A stretch of 64,000 nucleotides of DNA from a virus, in the IMG/VR virus record IMGVR_UViG_3300045974_000283, positions 113,838 to 177,837 of that record, one strand, 5' to 3'. Made by a program: the position numbers and the translations under genes. Shown in pieces: positions 11,599 to 54,503 of the stretch. The notes below the pieces were generated by a model. It did not search any database. It was not told the DNA's origin and worked only from the letters and a program-made list of their open reading frames with translations. Position 1 is the stretch's first letter. Each line of letters begins with the position of its first letter.

Positions 11599-11604
11599 GT
11601 TAAT
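11599..11604 (+). promoter_or_regulatory. GTTAAT putative phage promoter box
   Basis: CCTGTTAATGG at a gene junction, 43 nt before ATG 11642. Confidence 0.6.
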
Positions 11605-47296: not shown

Positions 47297-47604
47297 GCAA
47301 GATGAGCCCTCCAACACAGATTGAAAATCTCAAGTATCAGAATCCGTGGGCGATGACCCCTGCCGTGTGCAAGGTTCTGGAGAAGATGATGCTCGTCGAC
47401 AGCATGATCGAAGTCGCCGACCTGCTGAACCTCTCGCTGAAAACCGTTGAGACTCAGCTTTCGACTGCCAAGAAATTCATGGGTATCAAATCGAGGCATC
47501 GAGTGGTCTTGGCCTACTACGAATTCCACCGTCTCAAGGAGGAGGATCCGAGTCTGGTGGTCACACTTGTTAATGGGTGGCCCATACACCCTGAGGAGAA
47601 ATGA
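47293..47604 (+). CDS. LuxR/GerE-type HTH protein
   Basis: MTPAVCKVL...EVADLLNLSLKTVETQLSTAKKFMGIKSR. Confidence 0.8.
   Translation: MSKMSPPTQIENLKYQNPWAMTPAVCKVLEKMMLVDSMIEVADLLNLSLKTVETQLSTAKKFMGIKSRHRVVLAYYEFHRLKEEDPSLVVTLVNGWPIHPEEK
47569..47574 (+). promoter_or_regulatory. GTTAAT putative phage promoter box
   Basis: TTGTTAATGG, 37 nt before ATG 47606. Confidence 0.55.
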
Positions 47605-47605
47605 G

Positions 47606-47809
47606 ATGAACATTCACGACGACCAAGCCGCCCCGAACTCAGCGGTGGTGGCGTTCCAAGAGGGCTCCGCGGCCTACGACCTCGGTGTTGACCCCGGCAA
47701 CAATCCATACGACGACGAATCCGACGAATGGGTTCAGTGGCGCGAGGGCATGGCGGAAGCGGCCGAGGAGGCCGACGACATCGACGTCCTGCGGGAGCTG
47801 CGGCCGTGA
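47606..47809 (+). CDS. Rmf/CrpP-like small protein
   Basis: AFQEGSAAYDLG....NPYDDESDEWVQWREG; RBS GAGGAG. Confidence 0.6.
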   Translation: MNIHDDQAAPNSAVVAFQEGSAAYDLGVDPGNNPYDDESDEWVQWREGMAEAAEEADDIDVLRELRP

Positions 47810-48090
47810 ATGACAAGCCTCAGTTCGGCATCTTGCTCGTTGGTCTCGCGGCTCTGGTCGGGTTCCTAGTTCTGGTGGCCCCGCGAATGGAAGCTCCGAT
47901 TGCAGATCATGGCAACCCGGAATATCTGGCCGAGAGAGCGAGAGGCATGGCCGCAATCGCAGCGGCGCGCGATGCCGAAATCGAGGAGCAATGCGCTACG
48001 AACCGACGCAGCCGCCGAAGCTGTCACTACTTCTACACGCAGAAGGAGTTCCAGCAAACCCACAAACGGCAACTCGGAATATCACCGTGA
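47806..48090 (+). CDS. Small membrane-anchored protein
   Basis: GTGA overlap; N-terminal TM (FGILLVGLAALVGFLVLVA). Confidence 0.55.
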   Translation: MNDKPQFGILLVGLAALVGFLVLVAPRMEAPIADHGNPEYLAERARGMAAIAAARDAEIEEQCATNRRSRRSCHYFYTQKEFQQTHKRQLGISP

Positions 48091-50573
48091 AAATCCCTCA
48101 GCTCGAAGACCAGTTCGATCAGCTTCGCGAGATGAAATCGTTGAGTACGCTCAACGTCGCCGAAGGCTACGAGATCAACCCGCGTGTCCACCCGTTCTGG
48201 GGCAAGGCCAAGCGCAAGATGTTGTTCGTGTTGGAGAGCGTAGACGGTTCTGATATCAAGGCCGGGCGGTTGTTCGCGTCGCGCCTCGTGGGTCGCAACA
48301 ACGACTTCGAGGTCAACCGCATGATCGCCACCATGCGGAACACGCTGAAGCAGTCGTGGCATCTTTATCAAGAGTACCTCGAGCTCAACTCGCTGACGGA
48401 CGAATCAGCAGACCCCGACTTCGTGATCGGCTTCGTCAACTTCAACGCCACGAAGTACTTCCACCTAGTTGGCACACCGCGCCAGAATGCCCTCGCCAAA
48501 TGCGCCGAGCGTGTCCGCGCTGTCATTGCTGAGCTGGAACCCACAGACGTCGTCATCTTCGGCGACACGGCCACGCAGATGCTGGTCAAGGACCCGATGC
48601 CTACCGTGCTCCCGTGGAAGCGCGGATGGGTTCTTGAAACACAGATCGGTGACCACGCCTGCCGCGTCATCCCTACCCTGGACATCGAGCCGCTCTACAA
48701 TCAGTCTGGCGCGGATGCTGGCGATGACGGGGACGATGACGCTTCCGGCCCGGCTGACTTGCTCTACTTCGTCTGCCGCAACCTCTGCCACGCCTACGCA
48801 CAGAAGCACCTGCACTCGCTCGCTCACATCAAGCCCAAGGTAATCTTCGTCGACACGATGGAGAAGTTCCAGGCTCTGTACGACAAGCTGATGTCCACGC
48901 CTATGGACTTTCCGATCGGATGGGACTTGGAGACCGCCTCGCTGGAGGCGTACAAGAACGCCATCTACACGGTCCAGATCGCCTTCAGCACGACTCAGGG
49001 TTACATGATCCCGCTGCGGCACAAGGACACGCCGTTCGACGAGGAAGAACTCCAGTACATCGAGTCCTGCCTGCGGTACTTCATGTCCCGGCGCAAGCGC
49101 TCGGAACGACGCATCCTGGTCGGTGCCAACTTCCAGTTCGACATGAAGGTGATGCGCGGTCAGTGGAACATCCCGGTCATATACCACTACGTCTGGGACG
49201 TCGCGGCTGGCGAAATTCTGATTGACGAGAACATAGCGCTGTTCGACCGTATCAAGTTCCGTGTTCTGCACGAGAACGTCAAGGTCACCCTCGGCAACCT
49301 GAGGGCTCTGGCTACTCACTACGGCAACGACCTCTATTGGCGTATCGCCTTCTCGAAAGGTGAGCGGCACACGTTCGGCAGCATCAACGTGTGCGAGGAC
49401 AAGAACGCTCAGTTCTACGGCATCTTCGACGCGGTCATTGTGCTCGGCATCCGCCAGCAACAGATTGCCAAGGCTACGAAGATTCGCCTGTCGCCGAAGC
49501 AGACCTACGAGGGATACTATCAGCGCCACGTTGCCCGGCAGATGTCCAACACCTGCCACGCTACATCGTCGATGCATCAGCACGGCTCGCACGTTGAACT
49601 GAAGTTCATGGCGCATCTGGCAAGCAAGGACTCGCCGATCCTCACAGTGATGCGCGACACCGAGCGCGAGCTTATGGCGTCGCCCCTCGTGGAACAGGCT
49701 AACGACCGTCTGTGCAAGGCTGAGGGAGTTCGGGCTACGGGTCTCTTCAAGCAGAAGATCAACCTCTTCTCACTCAGCAAGGGCGACGGCCTGGAGCAAC
49801 TCTTCTTCGGTGTCATGGGTTTGAAGCCTATCGCCATCAGCGACAAGACGGGCAAGCCATCCATCGACAAAGTGTTCCTTGCCGAGTATGCTCCTCTCTA
49901 CCCAGAGGTAGGTCTAGCGCAGCAATGGCGCATCGCCCAGAAGCTGGTCAGTACCTACGTCAAGGGATGGGCCATCAAAGCGCAGAAGGCTGGCGACTCC
50001 TTTGCTGACCACTGCCTACGGGCGAGTTTCAGCTTCATGATCGTCACGGGGCGGCTCAACTCGTTCGATCCCAACCTTCAGCAAGCTCCGTCACGAGGCA
50101 AGCTGGCGAAGCTCATCAAGGAAGCGTTCCGTGCTCGCAAGGGTCGCTTCAACTTCGCGTGGGACTTCAACGCATCCGAAGTCCGGTGGGCGGCTTGTTT
50201 GTCCGGCGACACCATCCTGCGCGACGCGTTCCTTGCCGGGTTAATGCTGAGGCGGCAGCTCATCAAGGAAACTGATCCCGAGAAGCGCAAGGCCATCATC
50301 AAGCTGATCAAGACCGAAGGCGACATCCACGTTCGTAGCGTGTTTGCGTTCTTCGGCATCTGGGTTGACAAGGACCATCCGCTGCGCGCCGCTGTCAAGG
50401 CGGTCGTGTTCGGCGTCCTGTACGGCAAGGCCGCTGCCACGCTTTCCAAGAACCTGATGGGCGAAGCCCGCTATCGCCACCGCGACATCATCCTCGCGGC
50501 TAAGAAACGCGTCAAAGCCATCCAAGCGCAGATCAAAGCGCTCACCGTCACGAAAGAAGCCGAGGAAGTATGA
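48087..50573 (+). CDS. polA: DNA polymerase family A, N-terminal part (UDG-like domain + 3'-5' exonuclease + motifs A and B)
   Basis: ExoI WDLET, ExoII GANFQFD, ExoIII YGIFD; GRLNSFDPNLQQ; motif A WDFNASEVR; motif B RAAVKAVVFGVLYG (Phe at the 762-equivalent); no motif C. GTG start inferred (track start 47991). Confidence 0.93.
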   Translation: MKIPQLEDQFDQLREMKSLSTLNVAEGYEINPRVHPFWGKAKRKMLFVLESVDGSDIKAGRLFASRLVGRNNDFEVNRMIATMRNTLKQSWHLYQEYLELNSLTDESADPDFVIGFVNFNATKYFHLVGTPRQNALAKCAERVRAVIAELEPTDVVIFGDTATQMLVKDPMPTVLPWKRGWVLETQIGDHACRVIPTLDIEPLYNQSGADAGDDGDDDASGPADLLYFVCRNLCHAYAQKHLHSLAHIKPKVIFVDTMEKFQALYDKLMSTPMDFPIGWDLETASLEAYKNAIYTVQIAFSTTQGYMIPLRHKDTPFDEEELQYIESCLRYFMSRRKRSERRILVGANFQFDMKVMRGQWNIPVIYHYVWDVAAGEILIDENIALFDRIKFRVLHENVKVTLGNLRALATHYGNDLYWRIAFSKGERHTFGSINVCEDKNAQFYGIFDAVIVLGIRQQQIAKATKIRLSPKQTYEGYYQRHVARQMSNTCHATSSMHQHGSHVELKFMAHLASKDSPILTVMRDTERELMASPLVEQANDRLCKAEGVRATGLFKQKINLFSLSKGDGLEQLFFGVMGLKPIAISDKTGKPSIDKVFLAEYAPLYPEVGLAQQWRIAQKLVSTYVKGWAIKAQKAGDSFADHCLRASFSFMIVTGRLNSFDPNLQQAPSRGKLAKLIKEAFRARKGRFNFAWDFNASEVRWAACLSGDTILRDAFLAGLMLRRQLIKETDPEKRKAIIKLIKTEGDIHVRSVFAFFGIWVDKDHPLRAAVKAVVFGVLYGKAAATLSKNLMGEARYRHRDIILAAKKRVKAIQAQIKALTVTKEAEEV

Positions 50574-51265
50574 AACAATTCGAATTCCACCACACCGTCA
50601 CAGGCATCTCGGTCAAGATGTTCGCCCACCTCTGCCTTCAGAGGCGGATGCGGGCGCTGGTCATCGACAACCTGACCAACGACACCGGGAAGACCGTGTC
50701 GCAGGATTTCATCACTGCTTCCGAGTTCAAGGACGAGATGAGCTATAGCGGGGCACTTGAAATGCTCGCTTACCAGAAAAGCTTCCTGGTCAGCGCGGGA
50801 GCGGTCGTGCTTCGTAGCAAGATCGAGGTAAACGCCAAGCAAGAACTAGCTGGAATGCCGATTCCGCTTGGCGACATCATGCTACCTGCGGGCATGTACC
50901 ATGAGACGCATGTGACCGTGTCAGTGCCCGACGAGAAGCTTCCGCAGTTCTTCAGCGTCGCCCGCCAGCACAGGTTCCACGTTTCTATGGACGGCCTGCA
51001 GAATGCTCACCGCCATCGCCGTCTGCGTCCGGGCCACAAACAACAGGACGCAAAGTTCTGGTTGACGGCGCGCTCACCAGATGCCAGCCTCGTGCGTCTG
51101 GAATCGCATACGAACGCCATGATGTGCGACCTCGACAGCTTCTCTATCAGCCACAAGGAGCCTCAGTACGAGCTCGTCATCCATGACAGCAATCTGCCGC
51201 ACGACGACCGTTGGATGGGCCGACCCCGTCAACTGTCTGACGATCTTTATGCGTTGGCGGCATGA
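50570..51265 (+). CDS. Hypothetical protein between the polA halves
   Basis: ATGA-coupled; YHETHVTV...ELVIHDSNLPHDDRW C-terminus. Confidence 0.7.
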   Translation: MKQFEFHHTVTGISVKMFAHLCLQRRMRALVIDNLTNDTGKTVSQDFITASEFKDEMSYSGALEMLAYQKSFLVSAGAVVLRSKIEVNAKQELAGMPIPLGDIMLPAGMYHETHVTVSVPDEKLPQFFSVARQHRFHVSMDGLQNAHRHRRLRPGHKQQDAKFWLTARSPDASLVRLESHTNAMMCDLDSFSISHKEPQYELVIHDSNLPHDDRWMGRPRQLSDDLYALAA

Positions 51266-51567
51266 TGGGAGTTCTTACTTCTTCTGCTCCGAAGGTCACG
51301 CGCATCGACTACGGAGAACTCGCCAAGACCGACCCCAAGGCCGCGCTGACCTCTTGGTTTGACTTCCACTCCCAGGATCACAACGAGGAACATATGACGG
51401 TGGCGCCGGAACGCTCGGCGCCTTTCTACGTGACCCGCCTCGCTGAGGACGGTCAATACTACGGTAGCGACCGCATCCTCACGGAAGCAGAACTCCTGAA
51501 GCGGAAGTTCACCCTCTCATGGACGCAACGTGATTACCCATGGATAAGTTTCGAGGACGAGTCATGA
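51262..51567 (+). CDS. Hypothetical protein between the polA halves
   Basis: ATGA-coupled, 101 aa. Confidence 0.6.
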   Translation: MMGVLTSSAPKVTRIDYGELAKTDPKAALTSWFDFHSQDHNEEHMTVAPERSAPFYVTRLAEDGQYYGSDRILTEAELLKRKFTLSWTQRDYPWISFEDES

Positions 51568-52148
51568 CGTCTGCTCCCCCGAAGTACCTGTCAGGTGGCG
51601 TCATGACGCCTATGCAAATCACCTTCTTGGCTCGCGAGCTGTTCGTGTTCAGCGAGATCGTCAAGGGCAACATGGACCGCTATCCTGAGGATGATAACGT
51701 CTGGAACGAGCCAGAGGTGTCCATCGCTGTCCGTATGTACTGGGAACCTATCGCTCGTCACGCTATAGCTCTGGCCGGGCCTGTCATCTCCAAGTCCGCC
51801 GCCGAGATGACGTCGATGGTCAACAACCATCTGGTCTTGTCCTGCGTCGCCTATGCGGTTCATCATAGAACTGTGCTCGCGCAACCACGCGGATCTCGTG
51901 TTCACCTGTCGCCTGATTCGGTGGCTGAGATCGTAGCCGGATATATGCCGTCTATTGGTTCTACTGTGGCTCACGGCAAGGCGCAGTCGCTTGGTCTTGT
52001 TGGTCGATCACTTGAGTCAATCAAGAAACTGGAGCAGCTTGAAGACTACGAGATGGACCGGGACGAACTAAGGGATATTCAGCAATCGCTGCTCGAATAT
52101 CAGTCTTGGCTGATGACTTCGGCGGTGACCGACAAGGCAGCATCATGA
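51564..52148 (+). CDS. Hypothetical protein between the polA halves
   Basis: ATGA-coupled, helical. Confidence 0.6.
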   Translation: MTSAPPKYLSGGVMTPMQITFLARELFVFSEIVKGNMDRYPEDDNVWNEPEVSIAVRMYWEPIARHAIALAGPVISKSAAEMTSMVNNHLVLSCVAYAVHHRTVLAQPRGSRVHLSPDSVAEIVAGYMPSIGSTVAHGKAQSLGLVGRSLESIKKLEQLEDYEMDRDELRDIQQSLLEYQSWLMTSAVTDKAAS

Positions 52149-52657
52149 CCCAGCGAAATCACCACGGGCCATTCTTCGAGTCGGACGGCCACCGACTGCT
52201 ACAGTTGATTCTTAGCTCTTTGAAGACTCACATAATGATGACAGGGAACTGGAGTGGCAACATCACGCAGGTCTCTCATAAATACATAAACGGATCGGCT
52301 GTTCAGATATCTATACCACAAAGTGTCCAGAACTTGGTCATCAGTCAGAAAGGAAATGAGCCGATTCTGATAATGTCGAGACAAGCCTTTGGGCTATTCA
52401 TAAAGAACCTAGGCTCAGGCAGTGACCCGTTGACCTTGGACGGCAGCTACGAGTTCACGCGGCCAGAATTCTCGTCTCAGGCTCAATCAGACCTTCCGAT
52501 TTCAATGAAAATACAAATCGGCGGCATGATGCTGGAATTCAAGGTTCTGGTTCTGCACTCCGTACCGGGCGACATACCGGAGTTCGACGATGCCCTTTCG
52601 GAGCGCGTTATTATGACTCCAACCGATCTGTACACCTGCTATCTGCCGCGCTGTTAA
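52145..52657 (+). CDS. AT-richer hypothetical protein between the polA halves
   Basis: ATGA-coupled; visibly more A/T-ending codons (ATA, AAA, TCA). Confidence 0.55.
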   Translation: MTQRNHHGPFFESDGHRLLQLILSSLKTHIMMTGNWSGNITQVSHKYINGSAVQISIPQSVQNLVISQKGNEPILIMSRQAFGLFIKNLGSGSDPLTLDGSYEFTRPEFSSQAQSDLPISMKIQIGGMMLEFKVLVLHSVPGDIPEFDDALSERVIMTPTDLYTCYLPRC

Positions 52658-52658
52658 T
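52653..52658 (+). promoter_or_regulatory. GTTAAT putative phage promoter box
   Basis: GCTGTTAATAG, 41 nt before the ATG of the polA C-terminal gene. Confidence 0.6.
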
Positions 52659-52693
52659 AGCACCGCACAATCCGACTTAGTTCGAGGGTATTT

Positions 52694-53602
52694 ATGTCAG
52701 ACACCAAATCCAAACCTATCGCACCTGCACCGACGCGTGAATCCCTGACCAAGGAATTGGCCGCGGCTCACGCCGCACTCACCAAGGCCCTAGCCGATCA
52801 GCAAGAGGAGATGGTCACCTCCAAGATTCCCTACGAATCCCAACGCGATCCCAGCGGATGGCTCGGATTCTCATCCGAGGTCTACGACAAGTTTTTCGCG
52901 GGGTATCCTGGCGTATCCGCCCGAATCGACCTCTACAAGGAACAGATACGCGAACGCCTCTGGGTTATCTCACCTATCGGCCAGCGTCGTACCATGTACC
53001 GAATCCTGACGGGCGACCCGTCATTCATCGCGGGCGCTGAACGCCGTGCGGTCAACTCGCCGATTCAGGGTATCAGCTCGCAGGTAGGCATCACCGCCGG
53101 ATACCTGATTCAGATCGAGGTCTACGAATACTGCCTAGCCCGCAAGATTCCCGTCGAGTACACCACGATGTTCGTTCGTGCGGTTCACGACGCATCCTAC
53201 TTCGAGGAATCCTACCGCCTGATCATCCCTGCCATACACATCAATCAGCACGTTGCCACCGTCGGCGTCCATGAATACTACAAGAAGGAATTCAACTACG
53301 AGTTCCTGCTCGATCCTGAGATCGAGATGGAAGTGGGCGCGTCGGATGCCCGCGCTGATTCGTGGAATTGGGTTCTGGACGATCTGCCACCTCTGCTCAT
53401 CAAGGCGCTCGACGACCGCATCAAGGACGGATACGTCAAGGCCGAGCACCGTGCCAAGGCGCTGGAGGTCATCTTCAAGCCGTGGGTCAACAAGGCAGAA
53501 CGCCAGTATCTCCAGCGCAAGTATCCTCTGCTCCAGGTATCCGATCTGGAAGAGGAAATCTGCCTCGCCCTCGAACGCAACAACATCACACCGGAAAGGT
53601 AG
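52694..53602 (+). CDS. polA: DNA polymerase family A, C-terminal part (rest of fingers/palm, motif C)
   Basis: DKFFAGYPGV, SPIGQRR, AERRAVNSPIQG, motif C VRAVHDASYFE, PEIEMEVG. Confidence 0.92.
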   Translation: MSDTKSKPIAPAPTRESLTKELAAAHAALTKALADQQEEMVTSKIPYESQRDPSGWLGFSSEVYDKFFAGYPGVSARIDLYKEQIRERLWVISPIGQRRTMYRILTGDPSFIAGAERRAVNSPIQGISSQVGITAGYLIQIEVYEYCLARKIPVEYTTMFVRAVHDASYFEESYRLIIPAIHINQHVATVGVHEYYKKEFNYEFLLDPEIEMEVGASDARADSWNWVLDDLPPLLIKALDDRIKDGYVKAEHRAKALEVIFKPWVNKAERQYLQRKYPLLQVSDLEEEICLALERNNITPER

Positions 53603-53605
53603 AAA

Positions 53606-53809
53606 ATGGATCCAATCTTGAAATGCCCGCAATGCGACAGCGAACGGATCGCCGTTACCGCTGAGCAGATGTTCATGATAAACACCCTTGAACACTACTG
53701 TCACAGCGTGAAGACGCAAGACGACAACGCGAAGGTCGAATGCCTTGACTGTCATTGGGCAGGAAAACGCGGCCGACTGGAAGCCCTCAACGCACCAAAG
53801 AAAGGCTGA
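53606..53809 (+). CDS. Small zinc-ribbon protein
   Basis: CPQC...CLDC. Confidence 0.65.
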   Translation: MDPILKCPQCDSERIAVTAEQMFMINTLEHYCHSVKTQDDNAKVECLDCHWAGKRGRLEALNAPKKG

Positions 53810-53812
53810 ACC

Positions 53813-54004
53813 ATGTTCCAAGTCCTCTTCATCACGACTCAGTTTCCTCAATCATCCACATTCCAGGCCCATGAGATACCGCCGAACGTACACACAGTGA
53901 TCGGCTCGTTTCCAACGAGGGACGAGGCGATCATCGCCGCAGAACGTGCTAACGCATCTACCACCGGAATCAGACTCACCGACGCCGTCTGCCTCTTCAA
54001 TTAA
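53813..54004 (+). CDS. Small hypothetical protein
   Basis: 63 aa, packed between neighbours. Confidence 0.55.
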   Translation: MFQVLFITTQFPQSSTFQAHEIPPNVHTVIGSFPTRDEAIIAAERANASTTGIRLTDAVCLFN

Positions 54005-54013
54005 GGAACCATC

Positions 54014-54217
54014 GTGTCAACTTTCAACGACAGCATGATGCGCGAAATCGCCGAAGAAGCCAAAGGCCCGGTCCTGCGTGAATATCGCGGCTATCAAATC
54101 CGCCAAGACGGCCCCACCGACTTTGCCATCCTTCGATGCGGTTCCGAATTCGTGCGGACGCGGTGCGGCTCCTCCTGGAGTTGCATCTGCTACATAGACG
54201 GACTCCTGTCCCCGTGA
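54014..54217 (+). CDS. Small hypothetical protein
   Basis: RBS AAGGAACC. Confidence 0.6.
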   Translation: MSTFNDSMMREIAEEAKGPVLREYRGYQIRQDGPTDFAILRCGSEFVRTRCGSSWSCICYIDGLLSP

Positions 54218-54245
54218 GTTCCCTCAACCTAGAAAGCACCTCACC

Positions 54246-54464
54246 ATGAAATTCCTCACCCTCCTCATCGCGGCCATCGTTGCCGTCACCGCCCTCGTCA
54301 TTGTGCGAACGCGCCTCCTGGCGATCCACACCTTCGTCATCTACGGCCTGTGGACGCTCGTTCAGCAAGTCATGAAGAACTCCCCGTTCTTCGTGCCGGA
54401 ACCGTCGTGGATCACGGTCGGCGCCATCTCGCTGGCCGCTTGGCTCTTCGTTCGCGGCAAGTAA
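54246..54464 (+). CDS. Small membrane protein
   Basis: Two to three hydrophobic segments. Confidence 0.65.
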   Translation: MKFLTLLIAAIVAVTALVIVRTRLLAIHTFVIYGLWTLVQQVMKNSPFFVPEPSWITVGAISLAAWLFVRGK

Positions 54465-54503
54465 GCCGTCTTCCCGTCTCACGCAACTTCACCAGGAAAC
54501 ACC

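Follow-up and report, generated by a model that had tools for sequence, protein, structure and literature searches.

The last 64 kb of the 177.8-kb IMG/VR virus record IMGVR_UViG_3300045974_000283 (hereafter the window) encode a family A DNA polymerase (PolA) in two plus-strand open reading frames (ORFs), which ORF calls place 2.1 kb apart, the N-terminal half (N-half) first and the C-terminal half (C-half) second. Polymerases of this family are known from textbooks as single-chain enzymes and are widely used in biotechnology. The split of the window's PolA is real and not an artefact. Judging from sequence comparisons, we consider it probable that a replicative enzyme of the type found in phage phiRSL1, combining uracil-DNA glycosylase (UDG)-like, exonuclease and polymerase domains, is made here as two subunits, each translated on its own, which join non-covalently, the chain being cut at the turn of a helical hairpin. 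An original prediction made from the DNA alone had described a PolA split in the fingers into two genes about 2.1 kb apart, and both genes lie where it had placed them.

Two genes together carry the motifs of a family A polymerase

Based on the Pfam DNA_pol_A profile (PF00476, 381 positions), positions 25-231 are covered by the N-half (E 2.5e-26) and positions 238-317 by the C-half, with nearly nothing of the profile missing between them. The PolA of phiRSL1 aligns with the N-half over residues 31-751 and with the C-half over residues 805-1045, at 35% identity in each case, and the PolA proteins of phiRSL1 and BCSR5 both align continuously over the window's break. The N-half likely starts at GTG 48087, where a GTGA overlap with the upstream stop gives a protein of 828 aa, although the frame is open from ATG 47991. 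A profile search of the record returned no further PolA match beyond the two halves and no PolB match.

The motifs for both catalytic activities are intact over the two halves (Table 1). All three DnaQ-like exonuclease motifs, Exo I (DxE), Exo II (NxxxD/FD) and Exo III (YxxxD), are present in the N-half, which matches the exonuclease family DNA_pol_A_exo1 (PF01612) with an E value of 2.2e-4 and 21.5 bits, below the 23.6-bit cut-off; polymerase motifs A and B follow in the same half and motif C lies in the C-half. Motif C reads HDA and not HDE, a form that is the consensus throughout the subfamily, in split and unsplit members alike (family consensus RxVHDAxY). Alignment to Taq polymerase placed the break at the fingers tip, within the O1-O2 loop: AAATLSKNL of the N-half aligns with Taq helix O1 (SAHRLSQEL), and DKFFAGYPGV of the C-half (52886-52915) corresponds to the start of O2. 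The original prediction had ended the first gene after motif B with a heptad tail, opened the second on a helical head before the PolA sequence resumed through motif C, and put the break between O1 and the following helix; motif positions and the Taq alignment agreed on each of these points. A PDB sequence search with the C-half gave no match.

By the predicted fold of its N-terminal domain, the window polymerase is a UDG-PolA. The best Foldseek matches of this domain were UdgX (6ioc) and the Thermotoga maritima UDG (1l9g), with E values of about 1e-6 and a probability of 1.0. UDG-PolAs outside the N4-like cluster are described for the Bacillus phages SPO1, SP-10 and SP-15, in which a modified uracil replaces thymine (PMC10201439). 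Among the weaker fold matches of the UDG-like domain (E 1.5e-3) was PDB 9qhs, a 1122-aa "phiLo family-A DNA polymerase with modified template" released in 2026; it was absent from the sequence search and is no close sequence relative of the N-half, and its structure may be a useful reference for UDG-PolAs.

Table 1 Features of the split PolA locus in the window
Feature	Coordinates	Strand	Remarks
GTTAAT promoter-like box	47569..47574	+	upstream of the small-ORF chain leading into the N-half
PolA N-half	48087..50573	+	UDG-like domain, 3'-5' exonuclease, thumb, motif A, motif B, helical tail
UDG-fold domain, family-4/UdgX-like	48087..48836	+	residues 1-250; AlphaFold predicted local distance difference test (pLDDT) 91.5
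Exo motifs	48921..49436	+	Exo I WDLETAS 48921-48941, Exo II NFQFDMK 49128-49148, Exo III YGIFDAV 49416-49436
Motif A DFNASEVR, catalytic Asp	50163..50186	+	aligns with Taq DYSQKELR
Motif B / O helix RAAVKAVVFGVLYGK	50385..50429	+	aligns with Taq RRAAKTINFGVLYGM; fits RxxxKxxxFGxxYG
N-half tail (arm 1)	50430..50570	+	helix O1 AAATLSKNL, EARYRHRD motif, amphipathic heptad helix, acidic end
Cargo ORF 1, 231 aa	50570..51265	+	AbiEi-like by PADLOC; ATGA overlap with N-half stop
Cargo ORF 2, 101 aa	51262..51567	+	ATGA overlap; 74% identity to L003 counterpart
Cargo ORF 3, 194 aa from ATGA-overlapping ATG 51564	51564..52148	+	91-92% identity to L003 counterpart
Cargo ORF 4, 170 aa	52145..52657	+	ATGA overlap; low GC
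Spacer elements, 36-nt spacer	52653..52688	+	GTTAAT 52653-52658, GAGGG ribosome-binding site 52684-52688, before ATG 52694
PolA C-half, 302 aa	52694..53602	+	helical head, helix O2 onward, motif C, C-terminal helical extension
C-half head (arm 2 + insert)	52694..52867	+	helix core 52736-52813; alignments
Motif C VHDASYFE, second catalytic Asp	53183..53206	+	motif search

The break lies at the turn of a helical hairpin

Unsplit cultured relatives, at about 35% identity, carry an extra 50-60-aa helix-turn-helix between O1 and O2. When the two halves were aligned to these unsplit homologues, a check that had been proposed along with the original prediction, the window's tail fell on the first helix of the hairpin and the head on the second, so that the break coincides with the hairpin turn. 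The core of the tail, IILAAKKRVKAIQAQIKAL (50487-50543), is an amphipathic heptad helix, and in its best heptad register the a/d positions are 100% A/I/L/V, compared with 13% strongly hydrophobic residues elsewhere. The head contains the helix RESLTKELAAAHAALTKALADQQEEM (52736-52813) followed by a 13-aa insert, SKIPYESQRDPSG (52820-52858), that is specific to the subclade.

The hairpin was modelled in P0019, an unsplit metagenomic homologue of 1097 aa, with AlphaFold from a 63-row alignment (mean pLDDT 92.7, predicted template modelling score 0.92). The model placed the O helix at residues 773-786, arm 1 as a continuation of O1 at 791-815, the turn SDKD at 816-819, arm 2 at 820-839 and O2 at 842-856, and shows two antiparallel helices joined by a 4-residue turn, with a pLDDT of about 89-94 in this region. 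Its best Foldseek match was the Klenow fragment (1d8y; E 6.6e-25, TM 0.77 by target), the Klenow-type fold being tested on this unsplit protein and not on the window's two chains. More distant unsplit homologues (P0025, P0031, P0046 and others) have only a short loop at the hairpin site. A path from short loop to helical hairpin and then to fission at the turn is likely, and the origin suggested in the original prediction, a hairpin insertion broken at its tip, is supported both by the hairpin of the unsplit relatives and by the AlphaFold model.

Two of the related C-halves, P0005 and P0002, have an extra N-terminal domain ahead of the head, which is consistent with an exposed hairpin tip. This domain is in frame and of about 85-120 aa in P0005 (385 aa) and P0002 (L008:3901-5163, 420 aa), and that of P0005 is the Pfam family DUF4326 according to precomputed annotation. 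In contig L008 no N-half was found within 3.9 kb upstream of the C-half, and a homologue of phiRSL1 ORF258 is located there instead.

The split recurs and both halves are under purifying selection

A word-index search with the C-half as query recovered 12 C-halves of 253-420 aa at 91% to 33% identity, together with P0013, a 199-aa protein matching in the head only. The identical split was found in at least 10 independent metagenome contigs with differing gaps (Table 2), and the position of the break is identical in all split loci compared. The tails of the split relatives share the consensus ...EARYRHRDxILxLEKEIxKLKKEL and their heads ...PTKEELxKKLAELExxLxKAKxARDEEMxKDW. The arm lengths co-vary over ten split pairs (Spearman rho 0.92, n=10, calculated without phylogenetic correction). 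A word-index search restricted to longer proteins returned nothing at E<=1e-10, which reflects a limit of the index, since the exhaustive search described below gave many unsplit relatives; a search of viral contigs for related loci with the C-half found no relative.

Table 2 Arrangement of the PolA halves in related metagenome contigs
Contig	N-half	Between the halves	C-half
L003	827 aa	four ORFs + 0.7 kb (2.9 kb)	298 aa
L005	826 aa	37 nt	301 aa
L006	828 aa	SET-domain gene + one ORF (1.0 kb)	302 aa
L007	767 aa	65-aa ORF + PIF1-type helicase (1.7 kb)	253 aa
L009	830 aa	nine ORFs (4.6 kb)	291 aa
L010	820 aa	two ORFs (0.7 kb)	288 aa
L011	838 aa	seven ORFs (2.15 kb)	293 aa
L012		halves abut, 1 nt	
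L013 (226-kb contig)		halves overlap by ATGA	

When 1.84 billion representatives were searched exhaustively with HMMER, 443 matched. The best five were all short C-halves, and below them short forms starting at the hairpin turn interleave with unsplit proteins of 1000-1100 aa. These relationships were further evaluated in a tree of 102 rows and 249 aligned C-terminal columns, obtained by a quick search. The window falls in a well-supported clade of 13 rows (Shimodaira-Hasegawa-like approximate likelihood ratio test 97), every one of them split, with P0002 and P0005 carrying their N-terminal extension. Over the whole tree, which is unrooted and on which fission and re-fusion look alike, the distribution of split and unsplit forms requires at least 14 changes, of which 13 are forced by well-supported branches, and the hypothesis that the split forms make up one clade is rejected by an approximately unbiased test (delta log-likelihood 575, p 3e-11). 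Outside the window's clade, the genomic context was checked for L012, L013 and L014. The phylogeny indicates that the split is old and fixed in the window's clade and, across the wider family, points to many events of cutting or re-joining at this one site.

The recurrence bears on the possibility that the two genes are a decaying pseudogene or an assembly chimera and that another enzyme replicates the genome. The record is metagenomic and incomplete, which leaves some room for such an error, but the same architecture occurs in L003, an independent sample at 79-88% nucleotide identity to the window, and in many other contigs. In the comparison with L003, the N-half has a ratio of nonsynonymous to synonymous substitution rates (dN/dS) of 0.072, with 0.075 in its tail, and the C-half one of 0.122, indicating that both halves are under purifying selection; the catalytic motifs are all intact and the record holds no other polymerase match. 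We therefore regard decay or chimeric assembly as very improbable.

Even less credible is a joining of the two ORFs into one mRNA or polypeptide through an intron of group I or II, through translational bypass, or through an intein, split or not. Phage polymerase genes do frequently contain introns and inteins, as in the PolA of Lactococcus phage KSY1, which carries an intein, and one of the HMMER matches, P0150, has an intein-like VVHNC junction in its sequence. In the window, however, the gap is filled by four translationally coupled protein genes, and the 37-nt gap or 4-nt overlap of relatives leaves no space for an intron. No Rfam match was obtained at E<=1 over 47500-54500. Pfam, PHROGs and NCBIfam scans of the six proteins likewise upheld the earlier statement that intein and homing-endonuclease motifs are missing, since no Hint or intein family was detected and the junctions (tail end ...KEAEEV, head start MSDTKSKP) are without a Cys/Ser/Thr nucleophile and HN. 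In alignments, tail and head fall on the hairpin arms of the unsplit relatives and do not match intein blocks. An intron and an intein were both rejected on these grounds; the L003 insertion described below gave only a chance match to a snoRNA model (E 0.036). The recurrent split contigs, the dN/dS values and the lack of another polymerase match in the record together make misassembly, pseudogenisation and splicing of the window's PolA very unlikely.

A separate observation concerns the junction of L013, where the sequence G AAA AAG lies 13 nt 5' of the ATGA overlap (L013:7980-8004), one base off a dnaX-type slippery heptamer. A -1 shift at this site would enter the C-half frame without a stop and yield a fused polymerase, although its occurrence could be due to chance.

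A model for assembly of the two halves

In PolA enzymes the palm sheet joins the strands of motifs A and C, and the fingers join helices O and O1 with helices O2-Q. Considering that palm and fingers would thus each be built from both halves, the two chains would have to co-fold by fragment complementation. We infer that the halves assemble physically, pair through a coiled coil in trans and are catalytically active together. Pairing of tail and head in trans as a coiled coil is likely, and is indirectly supported by the co-variation of arm lengths and by the conservation of the tail. The coiled coil is probably not the sole glue between the halves, because the palm sheet takes its motif A strands from the N-half and its motif C strands from the C-half.

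We propose that a hairpin first grew out of the O1-O2 loop at the fingers tip and that the gene was subsequently cut at the solvent-exposed turn of this two-helix hairpin, which would have left the N-half with arm 1 as its C-terminal tail and the C-half with arm 2 as its N-terminal head. In trans, the arms would most likely pair again as an antiparallel two-helix coiled coil and hold the halves together during folding of their common palm and fingers core by fragment complementation. Once there were two genes, the gap may have acted as a slot in which unrelated accessory genes accumulate, four of which are held by the window.

Several observations weigh against this model. The PF00476 match of the C-half (E 4.4e-8, 32.9 bits) is slightly below the curated cut-off of 34.3 bits. 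The heptad pattern of the head is weaker than that of the tail, with 62% hydrophobic a/d positions, though the head is amphipathic, and the head diverges fast, its first 55 residues being 62% identical to those of L003 compared with 89% for the whole C-half. The record is about 74% complete by CheckV, and a second polymerase could sit outside the sequenced part. Some of the short "split" representatives in the wide search could also be artefacts of sequencing or gene calling.

As to what the split might do, we put forward only tentatively, and as the less likely case, that the O1-O2 hairpin is an evolvable break-and-dock module through which the catalytic domain is repeatedly cut and re-joined, with possible consequences for function. 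The split may loosen the fingers so that modified nucleotides or a modified template are tolerated better. It may also allow a regulated or exchangeable assembly, in which P0013 of L003, an orthologous head on an unrelated body, could compete for the N-half tail.

Comparison with known split polymerases

The closest unsplit likenesses are the PolA proteins of Ralstonia phage phiRSL1 (ORF256), Burkholderia phage BCSR5, BcepSauron/Saruman and Achromobacter phage Motura, which have the same domain order as the window's two halves and about 35% identity over both. The O1-O2 helical hairpin, the HDA motif C and the C-terminal helical extension are common to phiRSL1-type PolA and the window's enzyme, and among these likenesses phiRSL1 and BCSR5 have a primase gene downstream of PolA. 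The phiRSL1-type enzyme is a single chain of 1050-1075 aa, however, whereas that of the window is cut at the hairpin turn with 2.1 kb of genes in between. By annotation, the closest cultured-phage records checked (phiRSL1, BCSR5, vB_PpuM-Aura, RHph_I42 and KSY1) are all unsplit.

Splitting near the fingers tip has precedents in family B. T4-related Aeromonas phages encode a natural, active polymerase split at the fingers tip, gp43A/gp43B, and an engineered split Pfu polymerase was reconstituted from separate fragments and behaved like the wild type; when combined with the point mutation Q484R, split Pfu accepted a bulky nucleotide analogue better and showed broader substrate use (PMC2988022; PMC3061061). 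These systems resemble the window's in that a replicative polymerase is cut near the fingers tip into two separately translated parts that reassemble, but they belong to another polymerase family with another fingers fold, and a pre-existing coiled-coil hairpin at the break is not described in the text consulted. A two-subunit PolB core has been solved for PhiKZ (PMC13648687).

Family A polymerases from two genes are known as well. In S-SBP1-type T7-like cyanophages, PolA underwent fission between exonuclease and polymerase by a frameshift and a new start, described as the first PolA split in a 2023 reclassification of the family (Czernecki et al., PMC10201439), and LUZ24-like phages encode a "DNA polymerase part I / part II", with about ten small ORFs between the parts in UFV-P2 (PMC3890496). 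In both cases the break lies between the exonuclease and polymerase domains, in contrast to that of the window, which is inside the catalytic domain; because the break falls between motifs B and C, the active site of the window's enzyme would be built from both chains. The literature searched, a limited library, gave no description of a PolA whose break lies at a coiled-coil hairpin between motifs B and C. Split phage replicative polymerases are thus known, and what is new here is the site of the break, the visible evolutionary path and the recurrent origin.

This arrangement, in which motif C is on a different chain from motif A and the O helix, is fixed in the whole clade and recurrent over the family. 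It could serve split-enzyme engineering as a natural template for dividing PolA, with a defined cutting site and a docking hairpin already in place, and would allow a test of whether looser fingers help in replicating hypermodified DNA. The stepwise route from loop to hairpin, fission and cargo slot would illustrate how multi-subunit enzymes and hot spots of accessory genes can arise.

Cargo genes in the gap and the origin of the break

The four ORFs announced between the halves were all recovered, each coupled to the gene before it by an ATGA overlap, and they are lineage-specific cargo outside the enzyme itself. Cargo ORF 1 matches the PADLOC model PDLC02277 "AbiEi" over nearly its full length (E 2.6e-17) and is 66% identical to its L003 counterpart; no Pfam, PHROG or NCBIfam family was assigned to it, and a PDB sequence search gave only a chance-level match to ferritin (E 0.61). 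Its structure neighbours in the ESM Atlas include proteins that combine the same domain with an AbiEii toxin or with a Ham1-like domain. Cargo ORF 1 may be a phage-borne antitoxin-like protein and, as such, a candidate for counter-defence against AbiE. No family was found for cargo ORFs 2-4 in Pfam, PHROGs, NCBIfam or PADLOC, and ORF 3, for which dN/dS against L003 was 0.077, gave nothing usable in the ESM Atlas. Cargo ORF 4, with a GC content of 0.495 compared with 0.588 for the record and no counterpart in L003, is probably a recent acquisition. We detected no meaningful direct or inverted repeats flanking the cargo and no tRNA genes nearby.

Cargo is unrelated between loci except in the window and L003 and in the case of the SET gene of L006 and L005. 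This SET-domain (lysine methyltransferase-like) gene lies between the halves in L006 (L006:8963-9415) and just 5' of the N-half in L005 (L005:3790-4236), the two copies being 37% identical. The cargo of L011 includes a P-loop kinase.

The presence of cargo raises the alternative that the break is a scar of a mobile element (for instance a homing endonuclease cassette of the free-standing kind) that cut the gene and of which the cargo is a remnant or a replacement. Splits made by endonucleases are documented in T4-like phages, and Aeh1 nrdA-a / mobE / nrdA-b and T4 gene 39 / mobA / gene 60 are described as "genes in pieces" (PMC2988022). In L003, the closest relative of the window at 91% identity, a 1.26-kb insertion of low GC (0.487 versus 0.578) directly follows the orthologous head (L003:8619-10142). 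This insertion contains a minus-strand ORF of 228 aa with CxxC pairs and a weak match to a PHROG "homing endonuclease" (E 0.003), it supplies a diverged replacement head for the C-half, and it looks like a mobile cassette bringing a spare target end. Its position, however, is after the head and not at the break. The lineage-specific, low-GC cargo ORF 4 of the window would also suit an invading element, yet no endonuclease family was detected in the four cargo ORFs by Pfam, PHROGs, NCBIfam or PADLOC, none is recorded among the cargo genes of relatives, and repeats flanking the cargo are missing.

The empty junctions argue in the same direction. In three lineages (L013, L012 and L005) the halves overlap or are adjacent with nothing in the gap, which fits a simple fission by a stop, a frameshift and a restart at the hairpin turn. 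Aeh1 nrdA and T4 gene 39/60 resemble the window's PolA in being essential phage enzymes made as two cooperating polypeptides, but there an identifiable endonuclease gene causes the split, whereas no such gene was detected in the window and the gap is empty in several relatives. An origin by such a mobile element is improbable in our view; it concerns the origin of the break only, and the two-subunit enzyme would function alike in either case.

Apart from the question of origin, the old head of L003, 85-87% identical to that of the window, now forms the first 61 aa of the 199-aa P0013.

Both halves share a promoter-like motif

The C-half has a ribosome-binding site and a GTTAAT box of its own, as the original prediction had noted, although its further suggestion that the second subunit is separately regulated is weak, because GTTAAT is the phage's general promoter-like motif and stands upstream of many genes, including the operon of the N-half. 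All 13 GTTAAT sites in the window are on the plus strand (5.6 expected over both strands), and the whole record has 22 on the plus and 3 on the minus strand. Several sites, often in the context c-t-GTTAAT-g/a, lie about 25-45 nt 5' of a start codon; examples are found at 11599, 22755, 32379, 37950, 47569, 52653 and 63173. Consensus sigma-70 promoters and terminators showed no enrichment. Among the relatives, CTGTTAAT also occurs in L005, in the 37 nt that separate its adjacent halves, more distant split relatives are without GTTAAT before the C-half, and L006 and L009 show CTGTAAATAG upstream of the N-half.

GTTAAT is probably a general promoter element of the phage's own. We read this as placing both halves in the same expression class, with separate regulation unsupported. 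The second GTTAAT box may restore the dosage of the C-half after 2.1 kb of cargo.

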